In this document: positions 8,770-25,421 of the stretch, piece after piece
Layout of the letters: the number at the start of each line of letters is the position of its first letter
Numbering within the stretch: the stretch's first letter is position 1
From: a virus
Lineage: Duplodnaviria; Caudoviricetes
Direction: 5' to 3' (one strand)
Virus record (IMG/VR): IMGVR_UViG_3300025277_000115
Location: 1-28,140 of that record
Length of the DNA: 28,140 bases
Notes under the pieces: generated by a model
What the model saw: the letters and a program-made list of their open reading frames with translations, nothing else
Databases searched by the model: none
What the model was told of the DNA's origin: nothing
Translations under genes and position numbers: made by a program

Positions 8770-10839
8770 ATGGTTGAATTTAGTATATCAGAGGGATCGT
8801 TTAACCCTGTCGCTGCAACCGAGGATACTCGTAGCTTCGGTGATGTGTCGGCTGGGTTACTTCCCCCTGCGCCTAAAGGACCTGAAATACCACCTGTTGG
8901 GTTCGACGAGATTACCAACACGGTCTTCGTCAATGGGTTTAAGTTTGACGCCGCTGACCATGACTCAGCGTTGAGGTCGAAGGAAGCTATGTCTGGGCCA
9001 CTGGTGCCTATGCCCCAGAACTACCGTCCTGTGGATGTGGAGGAGTTCGGTAAGTATATCAATCGTATCCAAGACCCATCTATCGGGCGCATCATCAAGA
9101 AGAACTTCGGCATAGGTGTCGATAATCTTCAGTTACTAGGTGGACGCGGGTTGCAGTATCTTGACCCTGCTCTGCCCTTTGATGCCAACAAAGCTGGTCA
9201 GAAGATTGTTGATGAGCAGATCGAAGACCTTCGTTTTACCCAGCCCTACCAACGGCTGTTCACCGACATCGACTCAGCCGGTGGTGCCGTCGAGTGGTTC
9301 ATAGCTAACCTAGCGCAGCAAGGCCCTATGCTTATCGAGTCTGCACTGTCGGCTATAGCTGGCGGTATTGTTGGTGGTCTCGTAGGTGGCGGGCCTAATC
9401 CTTTCACTGCTGTAGGTGGCGCGTTCTTAGCCCTCAGTGGTAAGGCTGCTGTTAAGAAAGCAGTTATTGAGGCTGCTAAGAAACACGCTGCTGGAGAAAC
9501 GCTGGACATAGCAGAGGAGAAGTTACTTCGTGAAGTAGCTAGTGGTGCCGTTGCCAGAGAACTTAAAACCAATGCCAAGAAGATATCTCCTGTCATCCTT
9601 AGTAAAGAAGGCGTTATTAAAGATTTTCTCGGTGAGGCAGGTCTTGTTCGCGGTAGTGCAGAGGCACTTAAGCGCGGTAAGCTGCAGGCTAGGATAGGCG
9701 GCGCTATAATAGGACGTTACGTTAACAGTGTAGGTATTGGTGTCTCTGATATATACGGCGAGCAGATAGAATCCGGTACGGAAAATCGTGGTAGAGCTTT
9801 TTTGTTAGCCATCCCTTACGGATTAGCTGAATCTATACCTGAATTGCTAGGTCTCGGATTCTTTATTAGGGGTGGTAAAAGCTTAGCGACAAGTGTCTCC
9901 AAGGCTGGCCGCAGGACCAAGTTCAAAGCCGCTAAAGCCGCTGGTGTTCGGGCACTCAAGCGTACCGGACGCGCAGCGGCTGGAGGCGGTATTGCTGCAT
10001 TTGGCGAGGGTACTACTGAAGCTTTCCAAGAGGCTCTTCTTCTTAGTCAGAACCCTGAGGTTGACGCTGGGTCAGCGGAAGGTATTAACCGCCTTATCAA
10101 TTCCTTCGCCGCTGGTGCGGGTGTAGGCGGTGCCATAGGTGTGGTTGGTGGGGCTGTTAGAGGTAGAGGAGCCCTTGAAGGTGATAACAAGGATATCCTT
10201 AATCCTGATGTGAGGATTGGTCCTGCGCTACTTGAAGGCCCGGACACGCCATTACAACTCGAAGACCGACGACCTCCTTCTGAGCCTATATTACAAGGGG
10301 GGCCGGTAGCACCTGTTGAACCTGCTGCACCTGCTGCACCTCCGGCTCCTGTGCCCCCTGCTCCTACACCTATCACGCCTACTGCACCTGATGTAGACGT
10401 AGATTTCCTACCGGGAGCAGGTCCGGTAGAGACTCAGGCATTCCTAGCTGCACAGGAACCACTTGTTAACCCCGCTATCGCTACGGCCCCTGTTACGCAA
10501 CAGAGAAACCTAGTACGGGAACGGTTTGAACGAGATGCTGCTGTGGCTGCTATGCCTATCCAAGGTGAATTGCCTATTACACCTGTCGCGCAGGAGATAC
10601 CTCCTATTGGCTTCCCAGCGGCTGTACCTGCGCTACAGGGACGGGTTGACCCGAGCTTCATTCCCCCTTCTCAGATCGAACTGCCGGGCGCTCAGAACCC
10701 ACTACGCCCTACGGTTAGGGGAGAGGAAGCCCTCTTCGTTAATGGTCGTGCCGTTCCAGTTAGGCAGTTGCTGGAGAAGTCCGAACAGCGTAAAGAAGCA
10801 CTTGAAGAACTGCATAATTGCCTATCTAAGAAAGGATAA
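8770..10839 (+). CDS. Internal virion / ejection protein with Gly-rich membrane segments
   Basis: 689 aa. Hydrophobic Gly-rich helices (AIAGGIVGGLVGGG, AAGAGVGGAIGVVGG), EGTTEAFQE motif of the kind seen in N-terminal parts of large phage polyvalent proteins, Pro-rich tail, ends LHNCLSKKG. Confidence 0.65.
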   Translation: MVEFSISEGSFNPVAATEDTRSFGDVSAGLLPPAPKGPEIPPVGFDEITNTVFVNGFKFDAADHDSALRSKEAMSGPLVPMPQNYRPVDVEEFGKYINRIQDPSIGRIIKKNFGIGVDNLQLLGGRGLQYLDPALPFDANKAGQKIVDEQIEDLRFTQPYQRLFTDIDSAGGAVEWFIANLAQQGPMLIESALSAIAGGIVGGLVGGGPNPFTAVGGAFLALSGKAAVKKAVIEAAKKHAAGETLDIAEEKLLREVASGAVARELKTNAKKISPVILSKEGVIKDFLGEAGLVRGSAEALKRGKLQARIGGAIIGRYVNSVGIGVSDIYGEQIESGTENRGRAFLLAIPYGLAESIPELLGLGFFIRGGKSLATSVSKAGRRTKFKAAKAAGVRALKRTGRAAAGGGIAAFGEGTTEAFQEALLLSQNPEVDAGSAEGINRLINSFAAGAGVGGAIGVVGGAVRGRGALEGDNKDILNPDVRIGPALLEGPDTPLQLEDRRPPSEPILQGGPVAPVEPAAPAAPPAPVPPAPTPITPTAPDVDVDFLPGAGPVETQAFLAAQEPLVNPAIATAPVTQQRNLVRERFERDAAVAAMPIQGELPITPVAQEIPPIGFPAAVPALQGRVDPSFIPPSQIELPGAQNPLRPTVRGEEALFVNGRAVPVRQLLEKSEQRKEALEELHNCLSKKG

Positions 10840-10843
10840 CGAC

Positions 10844-11290
10844 ATGGCTTCAATTCAACATCTCGTAGACTCTCATGCGATCACTGCTAACCAGGCTGTC
10901 GCTACGCGTGGTAAAATTCATAAACTCCCCGATAACTGCAAAGGTCTGACTGCTGAAGTCGTCTTTGTCGATGGTGGGGGTGGCGGCACGATTGATGTGT
11001 ATATCCAAACCAGTATGGACAGCCTCGGTAGCACTACTGTAGGCCGCGCACCACAGGTCTGGTTCGACGTCATGGCTTTCCACTTCACCACTGCGGCGGC
11101 ACGTAAAATCCTCAAGGTGCGTGAAGAGACAGCTATCGTGGCTTCTGTAACGGAGGCTGATGGAGCTTTAACCGACGACACGGCTGTCTCGGGCATCATC
11201 GGTTCACATGTCCGTGCTCGCATCGTATCAGCAGGTACAGCGTACTCCTCTGGAACCTCCATTGATGTTTATCTGAGGATCGAAGACTAA
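10844..11290 (+). CDS. 148-aa predicted beta-sandwich hypothetical protein
   Basis: AAGGA at 10832-10836 and ATG 10844 just after the upstream stop. Beta-strand pattern TIDVYIQTSMD...WFDVMAF...VRARIV...IDVYL. The track start at 10526 is an unlikely overlap extension. Confidence 0.75.
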   Translation: MASIQHLVDSHAITANQAVATRGKIHKLPDNCKGLTAEVVFVDGGGGGTIDVYIQTSMDSLGSTTVGRAPQVWFDVMAFHFTTAAARKILKVREETAIVASVTEADGALTDDTAVSGIIGSHVRARIVSAGTAYSSGTSIDVYLRIED

Positions 11291-11301
11291 GGTAACTCGG
11301 T

Positions 11302-14300
11302 ATGGCCAGTTGCAGTATTAAAGCTCTTAGTTCTGCAGATAAGAGAGCGTATACCGCAGTCGCAAAGCGTAAAGGGGTTACGCTTAAAGCGGCTAGGATC
11401 GCCCGTGTGGAAAAGCTATTGGATGCTGCCATTGCTGAGCATGATGCACTTATAGCTCATGTGCAGGGAGTCTACCCCGGTCTGATTAATACCGAGGGTG
11501 TGTTCTTGGAGGACCTCAGGGCACAGGAGTTTGACGCTGGACAATTAGAACTCGATTTACGGGCCCCGGTTAAGAAGAAAGCTAAGGCTAAGGAGAAGAA
11601 AGATGGTGTTCGGGGCAAAGAAAAAGAAACCAAAGCTAGGGCTGAGAAGCCAAGCCCAGCAAAAGTTCTTAAAAAGGGAAAAGCCAAAGGTTCTGAGCCA
11701 GCTCCAAAAAGAGAGGCCAAGCCCACAGTCGCTGCCGCAAAGGATAAAACAAAAGCCCCCCGCCCAAAAGCGCCCAAGGAAGAAAGTCAGCCCGCTAGAG
11801 AGAAAAAGCCGAAGCAAGCTGAGCGGGCGGAGCCAGTACCCCCTAGGGTAGATAAGGACGAGGTGTTTATAGCCACTGATGAGTGGCAGCATTTTCCTAA
11901 AGATGCTATCGCTCCTGCTGGTGTAGAATTTAGGTTAAGCTTGACTGATGAGGACCAGCGCGAGATACGTTTAATTCAGCCTGCTAAAGAAGAAGAGCCA
12001 ATACCCACTAGGGTAGCACCAGCAGTAGAGGCCACAGTCTTACCGACTGCGGAGGTGACTGCTAAAGCAGCACCCGTAGAGGCTTCGTCTGAGGTAGTTG
12101 CTATGGTTGACATCATAGAAACTGCGTCAGGGCAAGAGAAGGCCGACGCCATTGCTGACCTCCTCCATGCTGCGTTGGTGGAGGATACATCGGGGGTGGT
12201 GGAGGATACCTCTGGTGCGCTTGATCTTGCTAACAGGTATGATCTGTTATGGGACCCCGCAAACAGAGAGCTTACTATAGCTTCGTTCATTGAGGTTCTG
12301 CAGACCCTGTATGCCGACAAGAAGAACGTCACCTTCAAGCATCAGCAGGCCATGTGGGACTTCGCCATTCAGCACGACATGTTCCGTGACGCTTATATCG
12401 CTGTCACCTCAGGTGGCCAAGGCATCGAGGGGTTCACACCTACTAATCCTAAAGCGACTATGATCGCCAAGCTTAGCGAAAGGGGTATCGCGGACGTTCT
12501 TATAAGTGAGGACCGCACCGCTACTGACAAACTCATTCATCTGCTTAATAAGCTGTTCGGGTATGAGGAAGACTTGCATTTCAGCGGGCATACTGTGGAT
12601 GCGCTTAAGAATGCCAACAAGATGATAGATATCCACATCAAGGCAGGGGCCAACCTTTCGAAGGACTTCGTACCCGATACCAAGTTATCTGCCATGCTTA
12701 AGGACGGTAAGCTCGCATGGCTACCTTTCGAGGGGTCTAAAACACTCAAGGTTATCGCCACGCCCAAGGGCTTTAATTCTGCAGATATCATCGTTGCTGA
12801 AATGGATGGGCCCAAGGGACGTACTAAGATTTTCGACAACAGGCACAAGCCAATTACCAAGCCGTTATCGCTTGGTGTTGTGAAACCCATCGTCGCCAAG
12901 ATGATGGACAAGTTCAACGCGAAGGTCCGGCCTAAGCATCGCACATACAAGAACGTCGCGGAACTACAGCGCAAAGACCCGGACATCTATCAAGAGGCTA
13001 TCGACTCACGTCCTGACGGCAATCCCATACCAGCTATCGCAGCGGGCTATGCCTTTGGTAATCGCATCCTCATCTTCAGCGACAACATAGGGACCCGGCA
13101 AGAGCTGACGTTCACCGTTCTACATGAAGTTATAGGGCACTTTGGCCTCGGCTCCCTCATGCCTACTGAGGATTTCCACACCCTGTTGGATGAGATATAC
13201 GAGAGCGATCCCATGATACGCCGCGAGGCCGATAAGCTCATGGGTAAGACTCCTAGCGGCCTGACACGCCGTTCGTTCCTCCAGGGGACTGCTAGTGTTG
13301 TCGGCACTGCGGCTGCTGGACCACTAGCCAAGCTCAATCCTATTGCTAAGGCTATCCTCGCAGCACGTAAGATCGGTATCGACTTCGACGCCAAGATTGA
13401 TGCTGATGGAAACCTTCTTTCGTTCACACCGATAAGGCAGATACTGGATGGCTACTTCGACTACGATGCGACAAACCAAGACTATGTAAAAGAGTACCTC
13501 AACGTCGATGTTGCCTTTGATAATAAGTGGGATAATACAGCCTTCGCTAACGAGGTAGAAGCAGAAGACCACGATTGGATGCTGTATGAGGATCACCTAG
13601 AGATGTGGTCCCCTGATAGCCGTGTCTCCAAGCCCGTCGTAAACAAAGCAGAGAATGCTGCTATCGACAAAGTCTATAAAGCCATCGCCAACCAAGGGGG
13701 GTTCAAGGGGTTCACTAAATCTTGGGTAAAGATAACTGACTCCATCAAATTCTTGGACGCTATCCGTCAAGAGACAGATTTATTCTCTGAGCAACAGGAG
13801 AAGTTCAGACAAGCAGACAAACTCAAGCGTGGCAAGAAAGCTAGGACCTCTCGGACCACACAATACGGTGAAAAAACTGACATCGGCAGGCTAGAACGCT
13901 ACGAAGCTATTGAGGAAGCACTGGCTGACCGTGCCGCTGAGCTGAACAATTCTATCATCCAGAAAATTTGGAACGCCATACGAGAGTTCTTCCGTATCAT
14001 AGGCTTTGAGTCTAACGAGGACGCGACACGCTATTTCATTAGCCAGTCACTGCGTTACCAGCGTACAGGTCAGGTACCTGATGCCTCCGCACCAGCCGTT
14101 TACCAAAACCTTAAGGTACTTAGCGAACGGTACATCGAGGGACGGGCTAGCGTACCTGATAGTGGTGAGCGGACTGCAGAGAGCACGACTAACTTACACG
14201 AACAAGTTCTCAAGAAACAGAAGCTGGGCCGGGCCCGGGGTCTCAGTGCGCGGACTTTCTTCGAGCGGGTACAGCAGACCTTCGAGCGTGCGATTGCACA

Positions 14301-17300
14301 GAGGAGTATCAGCCCGCTACTGAGGGGCTCATGGCGCGGGCTCAAGAAGGCGGCTGAGCATATCCAGACCATGAACAACCTAGCCATCTGGAGTGAGGGG
14401 ATGGAGAAGCTGTACCGTGCTTTCGTCGATCAGGCTCAGGAGGTCAGCCACCTCAAGACCAAGTATATTAACGCCACCGAGTTTACCAACAGGGTAGACA
14501 GTAAGGTGGCTAAGGCTTTGGGATTACAGAGAGATGATGTGCCTTCCAAAGAGGACTTAGAGCAGGCTAACCGTGGGCTTGAGATATGGTTGTTCGGTAA
14601 GCTGGATATCACCCCTGAAGAACTGGAAAAATTACCCGGCCTTACTGAGTATGACACTACAGGTGCCAAAGTTCTTAGCGAAGCTGGCATCAAAGCTGTC
14701 AAGAACGTAGGGAACATGACCCGTGAGCAGATTAACGCTGGTGTTCAGATACCCATGCTAGATGATGCGACTGGTAAGCCCGCCATAGATAAAGATGGCA
14801 AGCTTATCACTGAGCCTCTAAAACCGGATGCCCCCCTCTCAGAAAACGCTTGGCGGATCATCGAAGAAACCCGCACTGCCGTTGACCAAGCTGCACTGGA
14901 CGTACACATCAACCATGTCAATGGCGTTATCAAGAACCAGAAGCACCTGCTTGACCGTATGGACAAGGACAACAAGGCTTTGACACAAGCCGATACGAGG
15001 ATCATCCAAGAGATACTGGCTGTGTACACTAAGTTGTACAACGGGACATCAGCTCACCAAGCCAAGTTAGTAGACAGCGATGGTAAGCCTGTAGATGAGA
15101 AGGCCGTCTTGCAGGGTAAGGGAATGAAATGGCAGAAGGATGCTAAGGACAGAGCTAAGCGGTTCCTCCACAACACCCTGCGGGTGCTTGATTCCAATGG
15201 GTCCAACCTCAAGCTACAGGACTGGACTGGTAACTTCGCTGATGAAAAAGATCGGAAGAATATGGAGGAGTTCGTAATCAGCACCGACCCAGAGATACAG
15301 GCGATCATCGCCAAGCTGCCGCAGCTTGGTAAGGATAAGCAGGGGGCCAAGATCAACGGTGGTAAAATCCAGAATATCATCGCGAATATACATGTAACTA
15401 ATAGCGACTTGACCAACTCCGAACTGTACGCCAAGCACACCATCGCCACTGCGTACGTCCCATTGGTTCGCCGTGGTAACTACCAAGTGCGGGTGCAGGC
15501 TTTCGATAAGGACGGCAACCCGTTACGTCTAACTGATACGTTGCAAGCTGGATTACTGTACACACGGACTAACAACTTCGAGGAAGCTGAAGCCCTAGCA
15601 GAAGAATTGTCTGCTATCCTAGCTAAGTCCAAGGCCGTGGACGGGGTACTCGACTCGGATGGTACCATACAGGATGGTGTGACTTTCCAAGCCATAAATG
15701 AATCGGCCCTAGAGTCCGCACCACTGGCTGGTATCCTAGATTACAGTGAGATATTCCATACTTTGTTGCGTGCGGGAATCGAACTCAATGCGATTGACCG
15801 CGAGAAACTTATTGAGCTAGTAGCGACACAGAATAGCACCGCCAGACATAATCTCAGGCGTCAGTCAGTCCCCGGGTGGGACCCGCAAATACATCGTGGC
15901 GTACGGGAACATCTTGAGCGGCAGGCCAACATCGCTGCGAAGAACCTATTCCAGCATGTCATATCTGATACGTTGACTACCGACGATAGTATATGGTTCG
16001 GCAACCAAGAAGAGGTTACCAAATCGCAAGCAAAGTTCGTCGCTGCGGTAGCTACTGACAACGAGGCTGCTATCTTCGAGGCTAAGAGAGATATGGATCA
16101 GAGACAGGCACGCCTTGTTCAAGCCTCTGGCCTTAAGAAGATAAAGACTCTCTCATTAGATAAAGACGGTAACGTCATTACGACATTTAAAGAAGGGAGA
16201 GGGCTGGCTCAACATTACCTAAGTAAAGCCACCAACATGGTAGGTGCCTACACCGCTGCTCACGGTATGCCCGCTGTCACTGGCGACCAGCTAGTGGGTA
16301 CAGTGTCCAGTATCTTCATGACAGTAACCGCCGCTGCCCATCTAGGCGGTGCGTTAGCTCCTGCGGCCATCAATGTAACGTCTATTATCACTCATGCCGC
16401 GCCTTACCTCGCTACCTATAATCCGAAGACGGGGTATGGTGGTGGGCATGGTATGCAAGCTGCACTACAGGCTCTCTTCCAAGCTGGCTCTGACCTCTCA
16501 TTATTCAAAGACGGTTCGCAAGACAGGACGGGCAGTGCGAAAGCGATACAAGCGATCATCGACGAGGGTGAAGATACTCTACTATCCAAGTACGGCCTGA
16601 CTATGGATGAGGCTGAGATGCTGTTGGACAAGACGTTCAAGGGTGTACTCACCGCTAACATTACCAACGTCCTCACAGGCACAGGCAACATCGGCAAGGG
16701 CGACAGCCGCGCCATTAAGCTGATGGAGAACTGGATGTTCTTGTTCACCAAGACGGAGCAATACAACAGGCGTGTTACTGCCTTGGCTACCTACCGTCTG
16801 GAGAAGGCTCGTATGTTAGTCGCCAACGAAGGTAGCGCTTTAACTACCAAGCAACAGGAACAACTTTCAGAGCGTGTGGATGCCGCCGTTGATTTCTCAC
16901 AGGGCAATTACGAGAAGTTCAACCATCCCTCCATAGCGCAGGGACCAATGCTCAGGTACCTGTGGATATACAAACAGTTCCAAGCCATCACCATCCAGTT
17001 GATGCGCCACCTAGGTCACAAGGAGAGGGCCCAGTTCCTGGCGTTCTTCATCCTGACCGCTGGCCTCAAGGGCATACCTTTCGAGGAGGACTTCGCTGAT
17101 CTAGTGGACACCATCATGCAGAGGTTCGGCATTGACTGGAATGGTCTTGAGGGGGAGATGTCTGAAATCTTTGAGAGCCTCGGCATACCTGCTGGCTTGG
17201 CGATGCGTGGCCCCATCGACTACTATTTTGGCATCACCTACTCAACTCGTATCAGCCAGTCCAACGTCATCCCCGGCACAGGGTTCTTCAAGGCGGGAGC

Positions 17301-17934
17301 TGCCAAGGCAAGGGAGGCGGCTGACATCATCGGCCCTGTATTGAGTGCATGGGATGGTGTATTCAATTCAGCGGGTACGGCAGGAGAATATCTTTTAGAG
17401 ACTGTGGGCCTCAAGCCTGACGTCACGACGGCGGGCGATGTACTGCGTACAGGCGCAGGGTTGTCGGCGTTGAAGAATTACGCTAAGGGCATCACCTATT
17501 TCATCGACGGGACTATCACTAATGACCGGGGGCAGGTGGTGTCCCATGATGCGGGGCTCATGACTGTCCTGTTCCAGATGATGGGCTTCTACCCCGGCGC
17601 AGCCACTGCCCAGTACGATGTGAACCGTATCGGCAGTGACGTAGCGGCGTACAACAAGGCACTCGTCAAAGGCTATACGGACGCATACAACAAGACTGAC
17701 AGGGCTGGTAGGCGTAGGATTAGGCGGCAGGTGCGTGAGTGGAACAAGAATGTAGGTCGGAGGAGCCCGCTTTACATAAGCGATTTCGGTGACAAGGTCA
17801 GGCGGTCTAGTAAGGCGGCGAAGCAATCATCCGTTGAGCGTTCCATCAAGGCTCTACCTAAGTCCGTTAAACCTTTCGCTAAACGGATAGCCAGGGGCAG
17901 GGGGCTTGACCCTAGGGGTCTGGAGATTGAGTAG
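11302..17934 (+). CDS. Large polyvalent / ejection protein (2210 aa): zincin-like metallopeptidase plus PLxRFG-type C-terminal region
   Basis: TAAGGT RBS, Lys/Pro-rich linker, LHEVIGHFGL at 13120-13149, downstream EAIEEALA, YVPLVRRGNY near 15454-15483 (PLxRFG variant), C-terminal EQYNRRVTALATYRL...SQGNY...YKQF...AGLKGIPF. Confidence 0.8.
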   Translation: MASCSIKALSSADKRAYTAVAKRKGVTLKAARIARVEKLLDAAIAEHDALIAHVQGVYPGLINTEGVFLEDLRAQEFDAGQLELDLRAPVKKKAKAKEKKDGVRGKEKETKARAEKPSPAKVLKKGKAKGSEPAPKREAKPTVAAAKDKTKAPRPKAPKEESQPAREKKPKQAERAEPVPPRVDKDEVFIATDEWQHFPKDAIAPAGVEFRLSLTDEDQREIRLIQPAKEEEPIPTRVAPAVEATVLPTAEVTAKAAPVEASSEVVAMVDIIETASGQEKADAIADLLHAALVEDTSGVVEDTSGALDLANRYDLLWDPANRELTIASFIEVLQTLYADKKNVTFKHQQAMWDFAIQHDMFRDAYIAVTSGGQGIEGFTPTNPKATMIAKLSERGIADVLISEDRTATDKLIHLLNKLFGYEEDLHFSGHTVDALKNANKMIDIHIKAGANLSKDFVPDTKLSAMLKDGKLAWLPFEGSKTLKVIATPKGFNSADIIVAEMDGPKGRTKIFDNRHKPITKPLSLGVVKPIVAKMMDKFNAKVRPKHRTYKNVAELQRKDPDIYQEAIDSRPDGNPIPAIAAGYAFGNRILIFSDNIGTRQELTFTVLHEVIGHFGLGSLMPTEDFHTLLDEIYESDPMIRREADKLMGKTPSGLTRRSFLQGTASVVGTAAAGPLAKLNPIAKAILAARKIGIDFDAKIDADGNLLSFTPIRQILDGYFDYDATNQDYVKEYLNVDVAFDNKWDNTAFANEVEAEDHDWMLYEDHLEMWSPDSRVSKPVVNKAENAAIDKVYKAIANQGGFKGFTKSWVKITDSIKFLDAIRQETDLFSEQQEKFRQADKLKRGKKARTSRTTQYGEKTDIGRLERYEAIEEALADRAAELNNSIIQKIWNAIREFFRIIGFESNEDATRYFISQSLRYQRTGQVPDASAPAVYQNLKVLSERYIEGRASVPDSGERTAESTTNLHEQVLKKQKLGRARGLSARTFFERVQQTFERAIAQRSISPLLRGSWRGLKKAAEHIQTMNNLAIWSEGMEKLYRAFVDQAQEVSHLKTKYINATEFTNRVDSKVAKALGLQRDDVPSKEDLEQANRGLEIWLFGKLDITPEELEKLPGLTEYDTTGAKVLSEAGIKAVKNVGNMTREQINAGVQIPMLDDATGKPAIDKDGKLITEPLKPDAPLSENAWRIIEETRTAVDQAALDVHINHVNGVIKNQKHLLDRMDKDNKALTQADTRIIQEILAVYTKLYNGTSAHQAKLVDSDGKPVDEKAVLQGKGMKWQKDAKDRAKRFLHNTLRVLDSNGSNLKLQDWTGNFADEKDRKNMEEFVISTDPEIQAIIAKLPQLGKDKQGAKINGGKIQNIIANIHVTNSDLTNSELYAKHTIATAYVPLVRRGNYQVRVQAFDKDGNPLRLTDTLQAGLLYTRTNNFEEAEALAEELSAILAKSKAVDGVLDSDGTIQDGVTFQAINESALESAPLAGILDYSEIFHTLLRAGIELNAIDREKLIELVATQNSTARHNLRRQSVPGWDPQIHRGVREHLERQANIAAKNLFQHVISDTLTTDDSIWFGNQEEVTKSQAKFVAAVATDNEAAIFEAKRDMDQRQARLVQASGLKKIKTLSLDKDGNVITTFKEGRGLAQHYLSKATNMVGAYTAAHGMPAVTGDQLVGTVSSIFMTVTAAAHLGGALAPAAINVTSIITHAAPYLATYNPKTGYGGGHGMQAALQALFQAGSDLSLFKDGSQDRTGSAKAIQAIIDEGEDTLLSKYGLTMDEAEMLLDKTFKGVLTANITNVLTGTGNIGKGDSRAIKLMENWMFLFTKTEQYNRRVTALATYRLEKARMLVANEGSALTTKQQEQLSERVDAAVDFSQGNYEKFNHPSIAQGPMLRYLWIYKQFQAITIQLMRHLGHKERAQFLAFFILTAGLKGIPFEEDFADLVDTIMQRFGIDWNGLEGEMSEIFESLGIPAGLAMRGPIDYYFGITYSTRISQSNVIPGTGFFKAGAAKAREAADIIGPVLSAWDGVFNSAGTAGEYLLETVGLKPDVTTAGDVLRTGAGLSALKNYAKGITYFIDGTITNDRGQVVSHDAGLMTVLFQMMGFYPGAATAQYDVNRIGSDVAAYNKALVKGYTDAYNKTDRAGRRRIRRQVREWNKNVGRRSPLYISDFGDKVRRSSKAAKQSSVERSIKALPKSVKPFAKRIARGRGLDPRGLEIE
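12178..12219 (+). repeat. Diverged 21-bp tandem duplication encoding VEDTSGV/VEDTSGA
   Basis: gtggaggatacatcgggggtg followed by gtggaggatacctctggtgcg. Differences are mostly synonymous. Confidence 0.85.
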
Positions 17935-20785
17935 CTACGCCTAGCTGTCCTAGTGTGGCGTCCTGTGCAGTCACAGGCGTATCCTCTAGGTAGCCTCTAA
18001 AGATATCGCAGTTGAGGTTTACACCGAGTACGTTCTGTTGCCCCGCCTTGAGTGCAGTGTCCCTACCCATCCAGAAACGACCACTAGCGGGCGTGGCATC
18101 TATACCCTCGGTTTTGATTTCCCTTTTCAACGTGCTGTAGTCATAGCCCTTGGATGATACCCACTTCTTGAACAGCCGTGATACCAACATGACTGTGCCA
18201 CGATCAAATTTCTGATTAGTATCCTTACGGTATTTGTCGAAGCGTATGCTGATCTGGCTACGGGGTATGCGGGTCTGATCCATAGTAGAGGGTATACCGT
18301 CAGTGTGCATGACTACCAAGGCTTCGTGGGCCTTCTCGTTTATATACTCATGAATTAACTTAAAGGCATCTGTTACGTTGTCCTTCACGCTACGGCGCAG
18401 TGTGTCTAACTGGTCTACGCCCCATTGCACACCTATCTCAGGGTCGAAGTTAATTAGTCCGTCCTCGTGGGCTATGTGGAGCGCAACGTCAAGGAGGACG
18501 AGGTCTGTTTCCCAGAAGCGTTCCGCACCTGTGAATGTGCATCCGTAGCGGTCGGAGAATGTAGCCGCGCTCTCTGCAATAAGTTCCCGTAAGCGTGTCT
18601 CCCCCCGTCTCAGGAGCGCCTTAATAAATTCCTCACCTACGACACCGTAGTTATGCATGAGGAATTTAATGATGGTGCGCCCTGCGGTACTGCTGTCATC
18701 GAACATCTTGTGCATGGGCATCTGAACTTCAAGGAGCCTAGCCATCTGTGCATCAGTCTCAAGACCAGACGCTGCCAGCTTGGAGATGAAGGATACGTTG
18801 GTGGATACCACTACGCAGGTAGCCCACTCCTTGGTCTCGCGTTCCTCAATGGTGCGGGTCAGTCGCTTCTTGTCCTCACCCTGTGTGACCATGTAACAGA
18901 ACTCACCTATGTGTTTGTCCTCCATCATACCTGCTTCGTCGATGGTCATAGGTAGGTGACAGTACATCCCCAACCTGTTGAACAGAGCGTTCTGTGTGAA
19001 CTTGGCGGCGATATGTAGCTTGTCAGGGTTACCCCAAACGGACTGCATCCATAGCTGGGCCAGTGTTTTACCCGCGCCTGTGTCGCCAAAGAGGGACATA
19101 GTGATGCCCTTGAGGCCCGACAAGGCCCATAGAGGGCCACTGAAAGCATGGCCTAGGGCAAACATATGCGAGGAGAGACCGGCCTTCTGGAGCAATCCTG
19201 TGGCCTCTACCCACTCACTTAAGTTACCCTTGTGTGCGTACAACGTGTTGCCCAGACGGTTGGTGTTCGATGTGAGGGATATGTCATCGGTTACAACAGT
19301 GCCGTCACGCTCACGCTTGTATAGCTTGTCGCCTATAACGAACTGAGTGAAGTTCTCTTTCCACCCCATCGAATTGTGGATGTTCGTCATCGTTTTGGTC
19401 TTGCGAAGCTCCTCCATGTATGACCGCAACATAACTTGAAAATCCTTTATCTGCTTGTCTCCCCTCAACACGATGCCTTGATCGGCTATGGCCGTAGGAA
19501 ACTCACGGCTCCCATAGTTAAGGTATGCTTGACGGAACACTAGGTCTTGCCAGCCAACGTGTCTACGCTTCCACTTGAACCGGACAGTCTCATACCCGAG
19601 GGACTCATCTCTGCCGTAGCCCACTGGGTACATATCAAAGGGGCATACAGTGACGTATACTCCATCTACCTGATGCACTATGGCTGGCTGGCCTTTCTTG
19701 CTCACCCTCTCGTAGGGCCAAGGCACTTCAACATCATGGGCCACCTCGTCCGGTGCATCGGAACTGACCGCAACCTTCTCGTAATGTACACCCAGTTGGG
19801 CGGGGCTGGCGATGTTCCCCTTGTGTTTACACTTACCGCATCCCTTGGGCCTGTCTCCTTCTATCTTGGTACAGGTGGCTGGCCCCGTGGTGTTCGCTAC
19901 CCAGTGGGCCATTTTCTTGAGAGTGGCAGCTTCGTTATACTCGGGGTGTTTCATACTCCATAATTTGGCGGTGTCTTCTGGGTTGACGCAGTGCGCGGCT
20001 ACCCCCAACATGTCGTACCACAATGGCTCGGGTACATCTTTCTGGTTTTCGGTAATCCATTTAAGCTGACGGCATCCATCTAGAATCAGATTAGGCAGGG
20101 CGGGGGTGAAGTCGGTACTTAGGGCATCTCCTAACCCGGTGTCCTTGTGTACAGGGATGACCGGTTCTGTCTCCCCTGTAGGCTTAACGTAGCCCAAGAT
20201 GTTCTGGAGCGTTTGTTGGTCTGTCGGCTCAGCTTTCATCCAGACAACAACCTCTTTCCCATTCTTCGGGTTATGTGTCTCGACGGGGCGTAGTACTCTT
20301 GCACTGTCAGCGGTGATCGCTGGGTCCACCTCGAATTGGTGGGTAACACAGGCTTCTTTTAGCGCGTTGGCCAGCGGCAACCAGTCTACCGGGGGCAGAG
20401 CCTCTTTTAACACCCAGTAGACATGGAGCCCCCGCCCAGACGATACGATCATCGGTGCTGGTAAACCCGTGTCTTGTATGAATTTTAGTAGGGCGGCGAG
20501 CCCCTTTTTTTGATTTGCGTATGGCTTGTCGTCGCCACAATCAACATCAAGGAATAAAGTATTTGTTAAGCATACATTATCTTGTTTGCGCTTGCCCTTT
20601 GTATTGAATGAGGACACTGCGTAGTAGACGTTGTTGCCGTTCTTGTCTGCCATCAGGCAGTAGTTAGCGAGTTCTTCCACTGTAGGAAAAAAGGCTTGTT
20701 GGGGTGCGCCCCCTTCATTTATTATTATTGATACATAGAAACCTTTATCTGGAAGAACACGCTTAAGAAATGTAAGCGAGTTCAT
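17912..20785 (-). CDS. DNA primase-helicase: AEP/RepB-like primase, Cys cluster, DUF927-type AAA+ helicase
   Basis: FLDVDCG, SSGRGLHVYW, DSARVLRP primase motifs; EPLWY and TC...GCGKC; Walker A GDTGAGKT and Walker B MTIDE. ATG 20785 is preferred over 20845 because the longer version runs through a hairpin. Confidence 0.88.
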   Translation of the reverse strand: MNSLTFLKRVLPDKGFYVSIIINEGGAPQQAFFPTVEELANYCLMADKNGNNVYYAVSSFNTKGKRKQDNVCLTNTLFLDVDCGDDKPYANQKKGLAALLKFIQDTGLPAPMIVSSGRGLHVYWVLKEALPPVDWLPLANALKEACVTHQFEVDPAITADSARVLRPVETHNPKNGKEVVVWMKAEPTDQQTLQNILGYVKPTGETEPVIPVHKDTGLGDALSTDFTPALPNLILDGCRQLKWITENQKDVPEPLWYDMLGVAAHCVNPEDTAKLWSMKHPEYNEAATLKKMAHWVANTTGPATCTKIEGDRPKGCGKCKHKGNIASPAQLGVHYEKVAVSSDAPDEVAHDVEVPWPYERVSKKGQPAIVHQVDGVYVTVCPFDMYPVGYGRDESLGYETVRFKWKRRHVGWQDLVFRQAYLNYGSREFPTAIADQGIVLRGDKQIKDFQVMLRSYMEELRKTKTMTNIHNSMGWKENFTQFVIGDKLYKRERDGTVVTDDISLTSNTNRLGNTLYAHKGNLSEWVEATGLLQKAGLSSHMFALGHAFSGPLWALSGLKGITMSLFGDTGAGKTLAQLWMQSVWGNPDKLHIAAKFTQNALFNRLGMYCHLPMTIDEAGMMEDKHIGEFCYMVTQGEDKKRLTRTIEERETKEWATCVVVSTNVSFISKLAASGLETDAQMARLLEVQMPMHKMFDDSSTAGRTIIKFLMHNYGVVGEEFIKALLRRGETRLRELIAESAATFSDRYGCTFTGAERFWETDLVLLDVALHIAHEDGLINFDPEIGVQWGVDQLDTLRRSVKDNVTDAFKLIHEYINEKAHEALVVMHTDGIPSTMDQTRIPRSQISIRFDKYRKDTNQKFDRGTVMLVSRLFKKWVSSKGYDYSTLKREIKTEGIDATPASGRFWMGRDTALKAGQQNVLGVNLNCDIFRGYLEDTPVTAQDATLGQLGVATQSPDP

Positions 20786-20807
20786 GTTGTTAGCCTTAGC
20801 CCCAGTT

Positions 20808-20838
20808 AATTGGAAAGGGGAGCGGCGAACCACTCCCC
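20808..20838 (-). terminator. Intrinsic terminator-like hairpin between the HTH gene and the primase gene
   Basis: Minus strand GGGGAGUGG-UUCG-CCGCUCCCC (9-bp stem with one U-G pair, UUCG loop) followed by UUUCCAAUU. Fully paired only on the minus strand. Confidence 0.7.
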
Positions 20839-20851
20839 CGTCCAATGTATG

Positions 20852-21139
20852 TTACTCGTCTTCTTTCATCAATTCAATAAGTGAATTGAATCGTTGTGGG
20901 GAAGACATAGCGATAACCTCTGGTGATGGCCATTCCTGCTCAGTCATTACTCCCATCATTTTTTTGAGCAGCTTCCGCACCTTCTCATCGTTCTTTTTCC
21001 GGATGGGTTTTCCTCCAACCCATCCGGTGTAGGTTACACGCGACACACCCAGCACTTTAGCCATCTGTGTCGCAGTGAGAAGCATATGCTTCCGCAGAGC
21101 TTCTACTTTTACGAAGAAATCCGGGGTTGCATCAGGCAT
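20852..21139 (-). CDS. XRE/Cro-like helix-turn-helix transcriptional regulator
   Basis: VEALRKHMLLTATQMAKVLGVSRVTYTGWVGG matches the XRE HTH pattern. 95 aa. Confidence 0.85.
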   Translation of the reverse strand: MPDATPDFFVKVEALRKHMLLTATQMAKVLGVSRVTYTGWVGGKPIRKKNDEKVRKLLKKMMGVMTEQEWPSPEVIAMSSPQRFNSLIELMKEDE

Positions 21140-22118
21140 CGTCAGCTACCTCCTGCATAAGTTGGGTAATCTCAGCCGCCAACCCTTCGGTTCCCTCGGC
21201 AACAGGGGCCGCTACAGGTTCTTCAGCAGGAGCCGCTGCTTCTTTTGGTGCTTCTGCGCCTGCTACGACAGTCGCTGCTCCGAACCCTGTTGTCTTTTTC
21301 TCCTCAACAGGTTCTGGAGCTGGTGTCACAGGTATCATCACCGGGGCTGGTTTCTTAACCACAGGTGGTGCTGTAGTAGCTGTTACGGCATCTACCTTTA
21401 ATGTACTCATGGTGGTTGCTTCACCTGTGATCTGCTTAATAATGTCGGACTTGAACAGTGGGTCCACTAGCTTCTGGGTATCTTCATCCAGAAGCCCACT
21501 GAACTTGAACTTGAGCTTAGGGTAAGACGCCTCAGTGTCGAACAACACAGTGGTACGTACACATTCAGTCGGAATTTTACGCATCTTAAGGCCAGCTTGG
21601 TATGCACTAAGCCCCTTGAGTGCCGATGCTGTGACTTCCAGTAAGTAGATAGGGCCGCTAACGTCATCAGCAGATACAACAGCCAGCCGCTTCTTATCGG
21701 CACAGGCTTTAACCTTCGTACCCTGTGGGGTGATACGGCTACCCCATGCGTTCTGCGGGCAACCAGCACATAGATCGTTCTGTGGCTGAGTGCTGTCCGG
21801 GTGTGGTTTGTCTCCCTCCAATGAGTAGCAATCAGGAGCAGACGGTTCCGCGTCAGGATTCCACGCTGTGGCGTACCACGCTTTGGATAAGCCGGGGTTG
21901 GCCCCTACTACAACAACTTCCAGAGCTGTTGTATCCAATACGGACTCAGCTCCACCGTCGATCAACCGGAAGCGGGAGCCTTTGATTGAGATACGGGGGA
22001 ACTCTGCCCCGCTACTTAACCCGCCACCAATGGCGTCACCTAGGGCAGACGGCTGGCCGATACGGTCAGCAAGGTGAGCGGGAATTTTGAGGTCTGTTGG
22101 TATGATATCACTAGCCAT
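21132..22118 (-). CDS. Putative single-stranded DNA-binding protein with Zn-binding Cys cluster
   Basis: 328 aa. FPRISIKGSRF, PDCYS, CAGCPQNAWGS, KAC; Pro/Ala/Glu-rich flexible region and acidic C-terminus (EVADDA); replication-module context. Confidence 0.6.
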   Translation of the reverse strand: MASDIIPTDLKIPAHLADRIGQPSALGDAIGGGLSSGAEFPRISIKGSRFRLIDGGAESVLDTTALEVVVVGANPGLSKAWYATAWNPDAEPSAPDCYSLEGDKPHPDSTQPQNDLCAGCPQNAWGSRITPQGTKVKACADKKRLAVVSADDVSGPIYLLEVTASALKGLSAYQAGLKMRKIPTECVRTTVLFDTEASYPKLKFKFSGLLDEDTQKLVDPLFKSDIIKQITGEATTMSTLKVDAVTATTAPPVVKKPAPVMIPVTPAPEPVEEKKTTGFGAATVVAGAEAPKEAAAPAEEPVAAPVAEGTEGLAAEITQLMQEVADDA

Positions 22119-22360
22119 TACTTTTTCTTCCTTCTATCCATTTCTTTTTGTGTAAACATCTCTCCCTGCTTGGGTTCGATGTCCAGTTTGTGCCGCGCTT
22201 GTACGGCGATGATTTCTTCTGCGATAGCTATTTCTGTCTTGGCGTAGGTAATTTTAGGTTCCTTATCTACGCTATATTCCGGTGATGTGATTAGTAGGTA
22301 GCCGTTACTGATTGGCAGTACCTGCATCATCGGTGTAATATGTTCCAGAAAGACGGTCAT
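22118..22360 (-). CDS. Hypothetical protein (80 aa)
   Basis: TAATG overlaps with both neighbours. Confidence 0.75.
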   Translation of the reverse strand: MTVFLEHITPMMQVLPISNGYLLITSPEYSVDKEPKITYAKTEIAIAEEIIAVQARHKLDIEPKQGEMFTQKEMDRRKKK

Positions 22361-22761
22361 TATGCCTTCTTAACGGGCCTTCGTACCGATACTCCTATCC
22401 TAGTCCCAAAGTTCACGCCGTCTGGGACGGTCTTGTTCGCGTCGATATACCCACGGACTGATCTCTTGTTCACACCCCTAGTCAGCATATCCCACGCCTC
22501 GTTCTCCTTAACGAAAGCTAATACTGCGTCCCAGTTAGCCACACTAGCGTAGTCACTGGTGGTAAGGAATGCAGTGCCGTGATCAGTCTTGAAAGACTTC
22601 ACGCCTGTCTCATCTGACTTAGCTTGTATCCACGCTTCCAGCTTGAGCATCTTCTCCTTGATACCAACTACTATCTCCTTGGTATCGGCTTCAATAATCT
22701 CTTTCCGGTTACGTAATGTAATGTATGCTTCCACCACATCACCAACAGTTGGTTCAGCCAT
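22360..22761 (-). CDS. Phage replication-module protein (133 aa, N-terminal coiled coil; loosely Gam/Gp157-like)
   Basis: AAGGAGA RBS before ATG 22761. YITLRNRKE coiled coil, GVKSFKTDHGTAF, VANWDAVLAFV, VPDGV. Confidence 0.7.
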   Translation of the reverse strand: MAEPTVGDVVEAYITLRNRKEIIEADTKEIVVGIKEKMLKLEAWIQAKSDETGVKSFKTDHGTAFLTTSDYASVANWDAVLAFVKENEAWDMLTRGVNKRSVRGYIDANKTVPDGVNFGTRIGVSVRRPVKKA

Positions 22762-22873
22762 TGAATATCTCCTTGTAGATAGCCTCAACGATCTCAACAA
22801 ACTCCTCTTGGGAGTAGCGTTTAATGCTGATCTCGCTAACCAGTTGTTTGAATAGTTTAACTTCCTTAGTCAT
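22754..22873 (-). CDS. 39-aa hypothetical protein (not in ORF track)
   Basis: AGGAGGAG upstream of ATG 22873. Translation MTKEVKLFKQLVSEISIKRYSQEEFVEIVEAIYKEIFNG. Overlaps the helicase stop and the next start by 8 nt each. Confidence 0.7.
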   Translation of the reverse strand: MTKEVKLFKQLVSEISIKRYSQEEFVEIVEAIYKEIFNG

Positions 22874-24419
22874 CCATCTCCTCCTGTATAAGATCAAGCA
22901 GTAGCCCTTGTAACTTCTGCTTCAATTCTAGTCTTGCGTACATCTTACGCTCCAACACTGTCCCTTCTATGTGGACTATGTTAGAGGCGTGGTGCTTGCC
23001 TATACGCTCTATCCGCCCATTCGCCTGTACGTACTGCTCATTAGAAGTTATCGGGCCGTACCATACTATGGTCGAGGCGGCGGTGAGGGTCAGGCCATGC
23101 GCCATTGTTGCGGGGTGGGCTATAATAATGCGCGGGTTAACTTCGTTTTGGAAGTCATGGAAGATAATATTACGCTTCCGGGTAGGCACTGCGCCGTTGA
23201 CGATAGCCACTGTCCATCTCTTCGAGAGTTCGCGCTCAAGCATCTTGAGCGTCCCTGTGAGGGGGACAAAGACAATCACCTTGCCCCCAACTTCTTCTAT
23301 AACCTCGCGCACAGCATCGACTCGTGGTTTGCAGGCTAATTCTACGTCCTCGCCCTTATCGTTGTAGGCTACGCCACAAGCTATCTGTACCAGTTTCTGT
23401 ATCTTGACTGCCTCATTGACGGCAGTAATTTGTTCGCCGCCAGCAACATCAGTGATGAAGTGCTTCATCATCTTGTCATAGTGTTTGCGTTGCTCAGTAG
23501 TTAACTGAACCTCGCGTGTTTGGTAGACAGTAGGCGGAAGATCGAAACACTCATCCCGTTTATATCGTACTGAAGGTTGTAGAACATGTTTCACAGTATC
23601 CAGCGCACTGGGTCTCGGGATATAGGTGTACTGCCCGAACCTCTCCATTGTCTGGTCACGGAAGGCAGTGAATGTGCGGGGGGCGTATGGACTATCCACT
23701 AGCTTGGCCAGAGCCCATGCGTCAGTAGGTAAATTAGGGGTGGGCGTACCTGTCATGAGCCACAACCTCATGTCGGGGTGCATACTCATCCACTTACGGA
23801 ATAAACGAAACTTGTTAGTAGAAGGATTGCGATACACAGCCGCCTCGTCTACGATTACAAGGTCGAACATATCAACAGCGTCATCACATATAATGCCGAA
23901 GCCATCGTGGTTGACGATGTAGAAATCTACGTCTGTTTTTAATAATTTAAGCCGCCGCTTAGATGTACCGTATAGCGTTACAGATGTCCTATGAACAAAC
24001 TCTTTAAATATCGCATCCCCCCAAACACGTTCTAGAGTAGATAGCGGGGAGATAATTAATACTTTCTTAATTACGTCTGCCTTCATTAGGTAGTCGGCAG
24101 ACCACAAAGCAGAATATGTCTTACCCGTTCCGATTTCATTAAGAACTATAGCCTTCTCATTCATGGTGAGAAAAGCGGAAGTCAGGCGTTGGTGATGATA
24201 GGGTGTAAACTCCCCCGACCAATCGTAGTAGTGAAGGATAGGGGCGGGGGCTTTGATACCAAGGTTGCGTAGGATACGCACCTCATCAGACTTGTGGGGC
24301 ACTGCGGTAAAGGTAGACCCGTTCACTGTAACTTGTTGTGCAGTGGGGATACATTCAAGTACGCGTGCTGGGTTGTTCAGCTTGAGGGCTATGGCTTTGG
24401 CTTGTTCAAGCACTAGCAT
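22866..24419 (-). CDS. SNF2-family (SF2) helicase/ATPase
   Basis: NEIGTGKT (I), IVDEAA (II), LMTGTP (III), HGLTLT (V), QANGRIERIG (VI). Confidence 0.93.
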   Translation of the reverse strand: MLVLEQAKAIALKLNNPARVLECIPTAQQVTVNGSTFTAVPHKSDEVRILRNLGIKAPAPILHYYDWSGEFTPYHHQRLTSAFLTMNEKAIVLNEIGTGKTYSALWSADYLMKADVIKKVLIISPLSTLERVWGDAIFKEFVHRTSVTLYGTSKRRLKLLKTDVDFYIVNHDGFGIICDDAVDMFDLVIVDEAAVYRNPSTNKFRLFRKWMSMHPDMRLWLMTGTPTPNLPTDAWALAKLVDSPYAPRTFTAFRDQTMERFGQYTYIPRPSALDTVKHVLQPSVRYKRDECFDLPPTVYQTREVQLTTEQRKHYDKMMKHFITDVAGGEQITAVNEAVKIQKLVQIACGVAYNDKGEDVELACKPRVDAVREVIEEVGGKVIVFVPLTGTLKMLERELSKRWTVAIVNGAVPTRKRNIIFHDFQNEVNPRIIIAHPATMAHGLTLTAASTIVWYGPITSNEQYVQANGRIERIGKHHASNIVHIEGTVLERKMYARLELKQKLQGLLLDLIQEEMDD

Positions 24420-24735
24420 GGAGCCGTCCTTCGATAGCCTTATTAATAAATTTTTCTACTTCTGCGATGCTTTCCACATCATGCACTAGAAAGAATCTAC
24501 CTCCTGCTTTTTCTATCTTCTCGCTGCATTGTTGTTGCAAGGCAGTCATAGGTCTCTTGCTATTCGCTTTGACTTCGATACCTATGAACACGCCACAAGC
24601 ACATACAATACGATCAGGTACACCAGACCGCCCAAAAGGGCCAGCTTGCGGGGAGAAGTACCAGACACCACGGTTCTTCTTAAGTTTGAGCATGGTGTCT
24701 AGTTTCTTTTTGATTTTTCCTTCGGGCGTAGTCAT
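24406..24735 (-). CDS. VRR-NUC domain nuclease (Holliday junction resolvase-like)
   Basis: TPEGKIK...GRSGVPDRI...FIGIEVKA...TALQ, the PD-(D/E)XK VRR-NUC pattern. Confidence 0.9.
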   Translation of the reverse strand: MTTPEGKIKKKLDTMLKLKKNRGVWYFSPQAGPFGRSGVPDRIVCACGVFIGIEVKANSKRPMTALQQQCSEKIEKAGGRFFLVHDVESIAEVEKFINKAIEGRLHASA

Positions 24736-24741
24736 GGCGTT

Positions 24742-24769
24742 ATAATATATAACCTTACAGGGGTGTCAA
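24742..24769 (-). promoter_or_regulatory. Sigma70-type promoter with overlapping 15-bp palindrome
   Basis: Minus strand TTGACA (24769-24764), 16-nt spacer, TATTAT (24747-24742), within a 35-bp intergenic gap. Palindrome GTTATA-ATA-TATAAC at 24739-24753. Confidence 0.75.
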
Positions 24770-24770
24770 G

Positions 24771-25421
24771 TTAAATTCTTGCAAATTCGCAAATATGTTT
24801 GGCAGGACACCAAGGACATAGCCCACTTGGTTTAGCTGGCCAGTTAGATGCCTCCGCGGCGGCCTCTATACGTTGCACCCTTGCGAAGAACTTGTTCCAC
24901 AACGCTGGCTCTTGTTTTTTCCGGTAAGTTTTACTATCCAGTTTCATATCTTTGAGCCAGATAAAAGAAGCCTTAATCTTCTGCACGCTGGGATAGTGTT
25001 TGAAAACTTGTAACACGAACAATTCCAGTTGAAAGAAATCAGGACGATACTTACCTGTTTTCCAATCTCCTATTCCTGCTGTGGTGCCGTTAAGTTTTAG
25101 AACATCTAGTTTAGATCGTAGCCAAGCGTCATCATCCCACCAACCTGTCGGAACCAAATCTTTGTTGAGGCATAGTTCCTGTTCTACAAGTAGTTCGCCA
25201 TCACCAGACTCAAAAGCTTGGCATAGTTCTTCATACTTTACAGTTTCAGGGGTTAACTCCCCACCCTTCAAGCGTTGCTCAAGTTGTTCGTGTACACGTT
25301 CACCATATATACTAGCTTCATTTGATGAAGGCTTTACTTCCTTGGTGATACGTTGCATGTGGTACTGCTTGGGGCAGTTGTCGAATTGCTTGAGCGCAGA
25401 GTAGGAGTGAGTAAGTTTCAT
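24771..25421 (-). CDS. Cas4/RecB-like PD-(D/E)XK exonuclease with Fe-S cysteines
   Basis: SYSALKQFDNCP, GERVHEQLE, KLDVL, DWKTGK, QLELF and C-terminal CPWCPAKHIC (1+3 Cys arrangement). Confidence 0.9.
   Translation of the reverse strand: MKLTHSYSALKQFDNCPKQYHMQRITKEVKPSSNEASIYGERVHEQLEQRLKGGELTPETVKYEELCQAFESGDGELLVEQELCLNKDLVPTGWWDDDAWLRSKLDVLKLNGTTAGIGDWKTGKYRPDFFQLELFVLQVFKHYPSVQKIKASFIWLKDMKLDSKTYRKKQEPALWNKFFARVQRIEAAAEASNWPAKPSGLCPWCPAKHICEFARI

Follow-up and report, generated by a model that had tools for sequence, protein, structure and literature searches.

Twin-arginine (Tat) signals are regarded as a cellular, almost always N-terminal address. What, then, is a Tat-like signal doing in the middle of a giant phage protein, inside the loop of a metallopeptidase? 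The protein is encoded on a phage contig (IMG/VR record IMGVR_UViG_3300025277_000115), of which the 28,140-nucleotide window is the whole stretch analysed here; a late-gene block on the + strand converges in it with a replication block on the − strand. The protein scores 151.9 bits against the PLxRFG model NF032893 (cut-off 100), which assigns it to the PLxRFG polyvalent protein family. Two genes upstream have matches in PHROGs ('internal virion protein', 'virion structural protein'), and F116-like giant proteins are ~25% identical to its C-terminal part. Judged by gene position, neighbours and the annotation of its relatives, it is likely an ejection protein that would be packaged in the head and ejected. 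The features concerned are as follows.

11302..17934, + strand: giant polyvalent PLxRFG protein, 2,210 aa, final gene of the late block (ORF call)
12979..13239, + strand: N-terminal half of a zincin-like metallopeptidase (residues 560–646; HEVIGH at 13123–13140); H, E, G and H invariant in 41/41 sequences; pLDDT ~79–94
13261..13329, + strand: Tat-like head, TRRSFLQ, 15 uncharged residues and then Lys (RR at 13267–13272); supported by TIGR01409, a profile score of 34.2 bits, h-region measures and 12/24 identity in homologue P0003
13330..13815, + strand: insert body (about residues 677–838), acidic; predicted helix and beta-hairpin, a low-confidence middle and long helices
13816..13890, + strand: basic, low-confidence linker closing the loop; a similar stretch occurs in the insert-less P0004, P0009 and L002, the first part being older than the insert; pLDDT <50 (model residues 291–298)
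13891..14061, + strand: remaining, C-terminal half of the metallopeptidase, which holds the EE helix (13912–13917); EE invariant in 41/41, 54/60 identical in P0003
16333..17847, + strand: PLxRFG domain (residues 1678–2182); NF032893, phrog_21376

HExxGH and EE are invariant in all 41 aligned sequences, so that an HExxH-type helix and a second-helix Glu are both present, and the EE helix likely supplies the third zinc ligand. The motif of the giant protein is the five-apart variant, named for the spacing of the HExxGH histidines. An upstream transmembrane anchor was rejected, as no 19-residue window anywhere in the protein has a hydropathy of at least 1.5. Our searches found neither a prophage relative nor a close cultured relative; cultured phages had no match to the peptidase region or to two head peptides, and matches in the cultured relatives of two further loci, L142 and L298, were confined to C-terminal parts.

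A Tat-headed insert in the metallopeptidase loop

The original prediction placed a module of ~200 aa within the peptidase, and its coordinates were all right: HEVIGH occupies residues 608–613 (13123–13140), M647 lies at 13240, RR656–657 at 13267–13272 and EE871–872 at 13912–13917, the last lying 258 aa beyond H613 as claimed. Among 227 unique homologues, the HExxGH-to-EE spacing is 49–56 in 204 and 63–80 in 7 (the spacing pattern missed 13 of the 227, which are short by eye), compared with 263 in the giant protein (P0001) and its near-twin P0002, and 306 in P0003. BLAST against the insert-less P0004 leaves residues 647–863 unaligned. Homologues do not run continuously through the region, and RRxFL is kept in one diverged carrier, P0003; the insertion is thus borne out by spacing and alignment alike. 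Because M647 sits in an ancestral helix, and short-loop relatives also have the basic stretch with which the insert ends (near residue 840), the gained part comes to about residues 650–838, and the Tat-headed insert measures ~190–215 aa between the HExxGH and EE helices of the zincin. An assembly artefact is unlikely, since two other assemblies (L001 and L072) are 100% identical over the region and P0003 is a diverged carrier. Carriers of this particular insert number 3 of 227 homologues; being rare and dispensable, it would not serve a core ejection step. The insert body had no relatives at E 1 among proteins of 481–2,000 aa, the top 150 representative hits all had their strongest stretch outside the insert, and the ESM Atlas returned unnamed clusters with a best score of 0.78; in these protein and ESM Atlas searches, we found no relative or donor of the body beyond P0003.

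The insert is headed by TRRSFLQG and a 15-residue uncharged run. TRRSFLQ fits the S/T-R-R-x-F-L-K consensus (Z-R-R-x-hydrophobic-hydrophobic), and residues 654–674 match TIGR01409 above its cut-off of 16.7 when scored within shorter fragments (24.5 bits for 47 aa, 20.9 bits for 227 aa); on the whole giant protein, the model gives 16.5 bits, 0.2 bit below the cut-off. The Pfam TAT_signal model PF10518 gives 20.4 bits, below its cut-off of 22.7. Of 120 cellular matches, 115 offered a usable 45-codon S/T-led stretch and 114 of these survived a charge filter, leaving 96 distinct signals from which we built a 22-position Tat profile. This profile is biased to the pattern by which its members were collected and therefore serves as a chance test, not as an export prediction; on it, the head scores 34.2 bits, inside the cellular leave-one-out range (5th percentile 30.7, 25th percentile 36.8). 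None of 4,540 giant proteins block-shuffled locally reached 20 bits, the maximum being 15.7. The uncharged run of 15 residues compares with a cellular median of 17 and a 25th percentile of 14, as expected of an h-region, and the best 12-residue hydropathy of 1.29 lies between the cellular 5th and 25th percentiles (1.21 and 1.42). The h-region closes with AAA, a kind of triplet that is frequent in Ala-rich runs. We conclude that the Tat-like head is a real, non-random feature.

Between P0001 and P0003, identity is 12/24 in the head, 12/20 in the next 20 residues and 48/165 (29%) in the body, with flanks at 77/90 and 54/60 (86–90%). RR and FL are intact in the P0003 head. This offers thin evidence, coming from one diverged carrier, that selection may hold the head while the body drifts. 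Elsewhere in the family, the Tat profile reaches at least 20 bits in 4 of 227 sequences: P0001, P0002, P0003 and P0034. In P0034, a strong head opens a different insert holding a second peptidase domain, and in P0128 a degenerate head that has lost its Phe starts a 180-aa insert between two strands. The inserts of P0001/P0003, P0034 and P0128 are different inserts at different sites, and a quick tree of the PLxRFG family, built from 79 of 202 cores with the loop excluded, requires 3 changes. Only the giant protein's own copy exceeded 13 bits among 1,979 reading frames from loci gathered by PLxRFG homology, marking the feature as sporadic.

In an AlphaFold model of the peptidase region built from 41 sequences, both peptidase halves have pLDDT of ~80–94 and the Tat signal helix <50; the low confidence in the insert partly reflects a shallow alignment, in which one other row covered it. 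In the VIA fold search, zincins come out on top and align to both halves (model residues 1–361), with Z 6.1 against a tool threshold of 8 and an rmsd of 4.1 over 122 residues. Foldseek against the PDB returned nothing at E 0.001. The peptidase is predicted to close around the insert and to leave the signal helix unpacked, consistent with the original proposal although the fold match lies under the tool's threshold. A co-fold of the 38-residue head with Escherichia coli TatC and TatB(1–55), run without controls, scored 0.00 and speaks neither for nor against binding.

Buried twin-arginine heads in other phage proteins

The Tat-headed insert is no single oddity: it is one of several independent cases. 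A codon-pattern scan of viral contigs retrieved L298, an LPD38 giant protein whose Tat head lies ~22 residues past the start of HExxH. Within the LPD38 family, 10 of 34 members have an RRQFL-headed insert of ~133 aa between HExxH and EFxxE, with a spacing of 185–186 in 9 carriers compared with 52–53 in most other members. Kin that lack the insert are 84–95% identical to carriers in the flanks. The 10 LPD38 carriers, which were retrieved by homology, all preserve RRxFL, with body identity down to 39%. Two peptidase subfamilies have thus each acquired a Tat-headed insert in the equivalent loop, the bodies being unrelated.

A third family, the largest late protein of a podovirus group, has a buried head in 4 of 5 loci, and further buried heads occur in a family with lysozyme-like or ParB-like C-termini, in L271 and in a modular protein of L141. 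In all, buried Tat heads were seen in eight phage contexts with unrelated bodies. The bodies of different families have no mutual match (best cross-family E 0.014 in an 11-sequence set), and in every defined insert the head is followed by 100–330 aa of body. Several heads have uncharged runs of just 8–9 residues, LPD38 heads among them with 9, compared with a cellular 5th percentile of 11.

The survey for internal RRxFL enrichment that the original prediction had proposed came out in its favour. In the viral scan nearest to the cellular one, 12 of 14 matches were internal (at least 71 residues into the ORF) and came from 3 families; the cellular scan, which covered 36 of 64 parts and included 40 loci with short flanks, yielded about 1 internal match in 120 by eye (L220). 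More than 103 open codons lay upstream in 8 of the 120 cellular matches, 7 of which have a start 4–19 codons before the motif. The viral and cellular patterns differed slightly. Other viral scans gave deep internal heads in 5 of 15, 1 of 3 and 5 of 39 distinct matches, the remainder being N-terminal, leader-masked or chance. With KK in place of RR, an h-region followed in 0 of 6 distinct matches, a small control, versus 15 of 39 for RR. Such DNA pattern scans sample some codons only and yield no frequency. As judged from the scans, internal placement of RRxFL heads is enriched in phage proteins relative to cells, and the sequences indicate that Tat-headed inserts have been gained repeatedly and independently in phage proteins.

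What the buried signal may do

The reading we prefer, at a probability somewhat short of even, is that the looped-out Tat-type signal of the giant protein binds host TatBC from the cytoplasmic side after injection, an interaction that would likely dock the protein to the inner membrane and keep the translocase occupied. The protein would be packaged in the virion and ejected into a host assumed to bear Tat. Its peptidase would refold in the cytoplasm, by analogy with N4 gp50, whose zincin-bearing part is proposed to refold there while membrane-anchored (PMC13434306), and would present the signal on a long loop. That TatBC could bind a loop signal lacking a free N-terminus is suggested by analogy to two groups of Tat substrates, class IV (streptomycete Rieske proteins) and class V (FecR), whose signals are internal and stay uncleaved (PMC13673990). 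TatBC exposes its RR site on the cytoplasmic side, where internal signals can enter it, and the binding of a signal is enough to recruit TatA (PMC13186574). Since both loop ends are joined to one folded domain, transport would stall, making tethering or occupancy the default instead of export; the short uncharged runs (8–9 residues) of several heads would also fit recognition better than transport.

The original prediction is supported in part: the insert, the zincin model, the kept RRxFL and the internal enrichment agree with it. (Auto)proteolysis, which it offered as a way of exposing the signal, would not be needed, as class IV and V substrates are read internally (PMC13673990). We observe that the rarity of the insert and the decayed P0128 head weigh against docking. 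A head followed by 100–330 aa of body is also the arrangement expected of exported cargo or a captured gene start, and fits these as well as it fits docking.

An unlikely alternative is that signal and body together make up a whole pre-protein, and that one cut in the basic linker would let Tat move the body to the periplasm in a class V-like manner, for instance to act on the envelope or to exclude other phages. The order is signal-first in all 4 inserts with definable ends, and the P0034 head ends in an Ala-x-Ala site that precedes a whole second peptidase domain; the giant protein's own head, with its 15-residue uncharged run and AAA, would suit export too, even as LPD38 heads, with 9 uncharged residues, would not. 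Domains downstream of other heads point both ways, being cell-wall hydrolases in L135, L347 and L350, but ParB-like in L349. In L141, L286, L305 and L350, the head comes after an acidic site, which we take to resemble a prohead-protease cut. For the giant protein itself, however, we identified no cut site, and the basic linker is older than the insert. The body moreover folds poorly in models (mean pLDDT 49.5 for the insert modelled alone), whereas Tat carries folded proteins. Docking and cargo export both engage Tat, and we give the two combined a somewhat better than even chance.

Similarly improbable, and next in our ranking, is a relic: a tolerant loop would have received, by fusion, the 5′ end of a gene for a secreted protein (from a cell, or one of the small phage genes with N-terminal Tat signals), and the signal would now have no role. 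The loop does tolerate inserts (PMC5512222), with spacings of 63–80 in 7 homologues. Possible donors exist among small phage ORFs that begin with a Tat signal, and Met precedes T/S-RR in 10 of 10 LPD38 carriers. Carriage is patchy, and gene capture would also be expected to give signal-first modules. Yet the head persists where the body has diverged to 29% identity (P0003) and 39% (LPD38), no donor was found for the giant protein's insert body, and random fusion leaves unexplained both the frequent signal-first gain and its near-absence in cells.

Still more doubtful is a partner other than TatC: the peptide might act as an amphipathic anchor in membrane lipids, or be bound by a signal-peptide chaperone (SlyD or a REMP, for instance). 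Membrane association is known for Tat signals, one of which is bound by SlyD with RR contributing (PMC13673990); some of the phage heads are also short or degenerate. A lipid anchor, however, would tolerate KK, and KK versions had an h-region in 0 of 6 cases; the full S/T-R-R-x-F-L-K/Q/R-G pattern recurs, moreover. Least probable is an internal start at M647 yielding a 1,564-aa isoform with an ordinary N-terminal Tat signal: the motif is preceded at eight codons by an ATG that has GAGG upstream of it (pairing energy −5.9), and the L135 family has an ATG 9–21 codons ahead of the motif, but −5.6 or better is found in 10 of 40 in-frame ATGs of the gene, M647 is ancestral and the isoform would begin with half a peptidase. 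As a general explanation of buried heads, an internal start was rejected, as no start is present within 45 codons in L141, nor any with a good site in L147, L332 or L298.

Beyond this protein, we put at about even the chance that diverse phages have repeatedly given their injected proteins mobile modules headed by a buried twin-arginine signal, and that the delivered protein docks on, jams or is re-exported by Tat in the first minutes of infection, an undescribed interface invisible to N-terminal predictors. If TatBC reads buried heads, injected phage proteins would grip the host translocase directly, ahead of phage gene expression. The natural pairs with and without the insert (flanks 84–95% identical) make for a cheap test, an E. 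coli assay of the module for which phage culture is not required.

Comparison with known Tat ligands and phage proteins

SignalP-6.0 scores N-termini. At least one phage screen sought Tat signals by SignalP-6.0 alone; in it, tatC mutants gained fitness against three Klebsiella phages (KLB4, KLB19 and KLB21), for which no signal was reported by that predictor in the accessible text (PMC13412088). TIGR01409 applied in six frames matched 0 of these 3 records. Of 54 loose RRxF matches in the Klebsiella phages, 30 were scored as loci with a best score of 6.0 bits, and the most signal-like match is antisense to an annotated gene. Buried signals were thus rejected as the cause of the Klebsiella tatC effect, with no TIGR01409 match in any of the three records.

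Variable inserts between the two helices of polyvalent-protein MPTases are already published (PMC5512222, Iyer et al. 2017). Like the giant protein, those zincin-like MPTase proteins are giant, multidomain phage proteins of the late-gene block with an HExxH-type helix, a Glu helix and a variable insert, and autoproteolysis or an effector role has been proposed for both. They differ in that the insert here is ~200 aa and starts with a Tat signal, and in that the motif here is HExxGH; the main text of PMC5512222 has 0 occurrences of 'twin-arginine' or 'signal peptide'. On the Tat side, neither a phage Tat-headed module nor a phage–Tat link of this kind was found in the accessible open-licence PMC and bioRxiv literature. 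What is new is therefore the Tat-type head on the loop insert, while variable inserts at the same loop were known.

The podovirus ejection proteins N4 gp50, phi24B gp47 and T7 gp16 likewise are very large products of the last late gene, have a metallopeptidase motif and are ejected or proposed to be (PMC13434306; bioRxiv 10.64898/2026.04.10.717836); the giant polyvalent gp47 was found in phi24B virions, with ejection proposed. They differ in being anchored to the membrane by their own domains, and the accessible text of these sources mentions no Tat signal or contact ('twin-arginine' has 0 occurrences in that of the phi24B paper).

Among Tat substrates, class I signals (TIGR01409, PF10518) share with the head the consensus and the uncharged run behind it, which is moderately hydrophobic and closes with a basic residue. 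The head differs in its lower-quartile hydrophobicity, its uncertain cleavage site and its position, the motif lying at residue 655 of 2,210 instead of at the N-terminus. Class IV and V substrates likewise have an internal twin-arginine signal, which in them is read without a free N-terminus and here would be, but they are host membrane proteins in which the signal divides a cis part from a translocated C-terminal domain (PMC13673990). The giant protein is viral, its flanks form one predicted globular domain and no transmembrane segment lies upstream, leaving it without the membrane-inserted helices that precede class IV signals. A class V layout would require a cut behind the insert body, since both flanks are predicted as one zincin. 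As it stands, the giant protein falls outside every listed Tat substrate class, though its head looks like a Tat signal; if the docking reading is true, it would represent a type of Tat ligand beyond the five classes of a 2026 review, a signal carried in the loop of one folded domain.

Tat-headed inserts in other giant peptidase proteins

Inserts in giant phage proteins extend to the following loci on other viral contigs (L, in the coordinates of each locus) and proteins (P).

L298:19-5208 and P0164-P0197, LPD38 giant proteins: ~133-aa Tat-headed insert in the loop equivalent to that of the window's peptidase, between the HExxH-type and Glu helices
P0034, PLxRFG-family homologue, residues ~290-615: Tat head with a terminal Ala-x-Ala site, plus a complete second metallopeptidase domain
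P0128, PLxRFG-family homologue, residues ~415-597: acidic insert of ~180 aa that separates two strands of this family's peptidase

Only 10 of the 34 LPD38 proteins carry the insert, and near-identical kin are without it. The LPD38 insert differs from that of the window's giant protein, although both are Tat-headed and occupy the equivalent loop. P0052, a relative of P0034, lacks the latter's Tat head and second metallopeptidase insert, and a degenerate Tat motif without the Phe opens the P0128 insert.

Buried Tat heads beyond the peptidases and their possible donors

Tat signals, internal or apparently N-terminal, were found in further phage proteins.

L135:1600-3549, L347:5473-7986, L349:5536-7356, L357:6166-7353: one phage family, internal Tat head ~110 or ~320 aa in
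L142:7275-12368, L147:3473-8803, L329, L331, L332: a podovirus group, internal Tat head (except in L331) in the largest late protein
L141:4161-6662, L286, L305:6941-7828, L350:6406-7065: Tat head after an acidic protease-site-like stretch or short leader
L136, L139, L144, L275, L282, L319: small ORFs, Tat signals apparently N-terminal

In the first family, the domain after the head alternates between a lysozyme or transglycosylase-like one and a ParB-like one. In the third group, L350 has an endolysin or chitinase-like domain downstream of the head. The podoviruses, distant kin of Bordetella phage BPP-1 Bbp10, have the head in 4 of 5 loci, L331 missing both the head and ~90 aa past it. The small ORFs could possibly be donors of the Tat-headed modules.

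Surroundings and zinc motif of the giant protein

Replication block on the minus strand (window 17912-28139): DUF927 primase, SNF2 helicase, PD-(D/E)XK exonuclease, family A polymerase

This block converges on the late genes. Among cultured phages, its polymerase comes closest to those of the Rhizobium RHph_TM-type and Pseudomonas KPP25-type, at 37-39% identity. Upstream of the giant protein, a 254-aa ORF was called from a TTG start (window 10526-11290), so placed that ~310 bases are shared with the 3' end of the gene at 8770-10839 (689 aa); the ORF has no family match, and its real start probably lies further downstream. Residues 1 to ~260 of the giant protein (window 11302-12100) are of low complexity, rich in Lys/Glu/Pro/Ala.

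The giant protein's zinc motif is HExxGH, with histidines five apart (window 13123-13140), and its EExxAD helix lies at window 13912-13929; in relatives this helix follows ~51 aa past HExxGH. This layout may resemble the arrangement of dipeptidyl peptidase III (M49).
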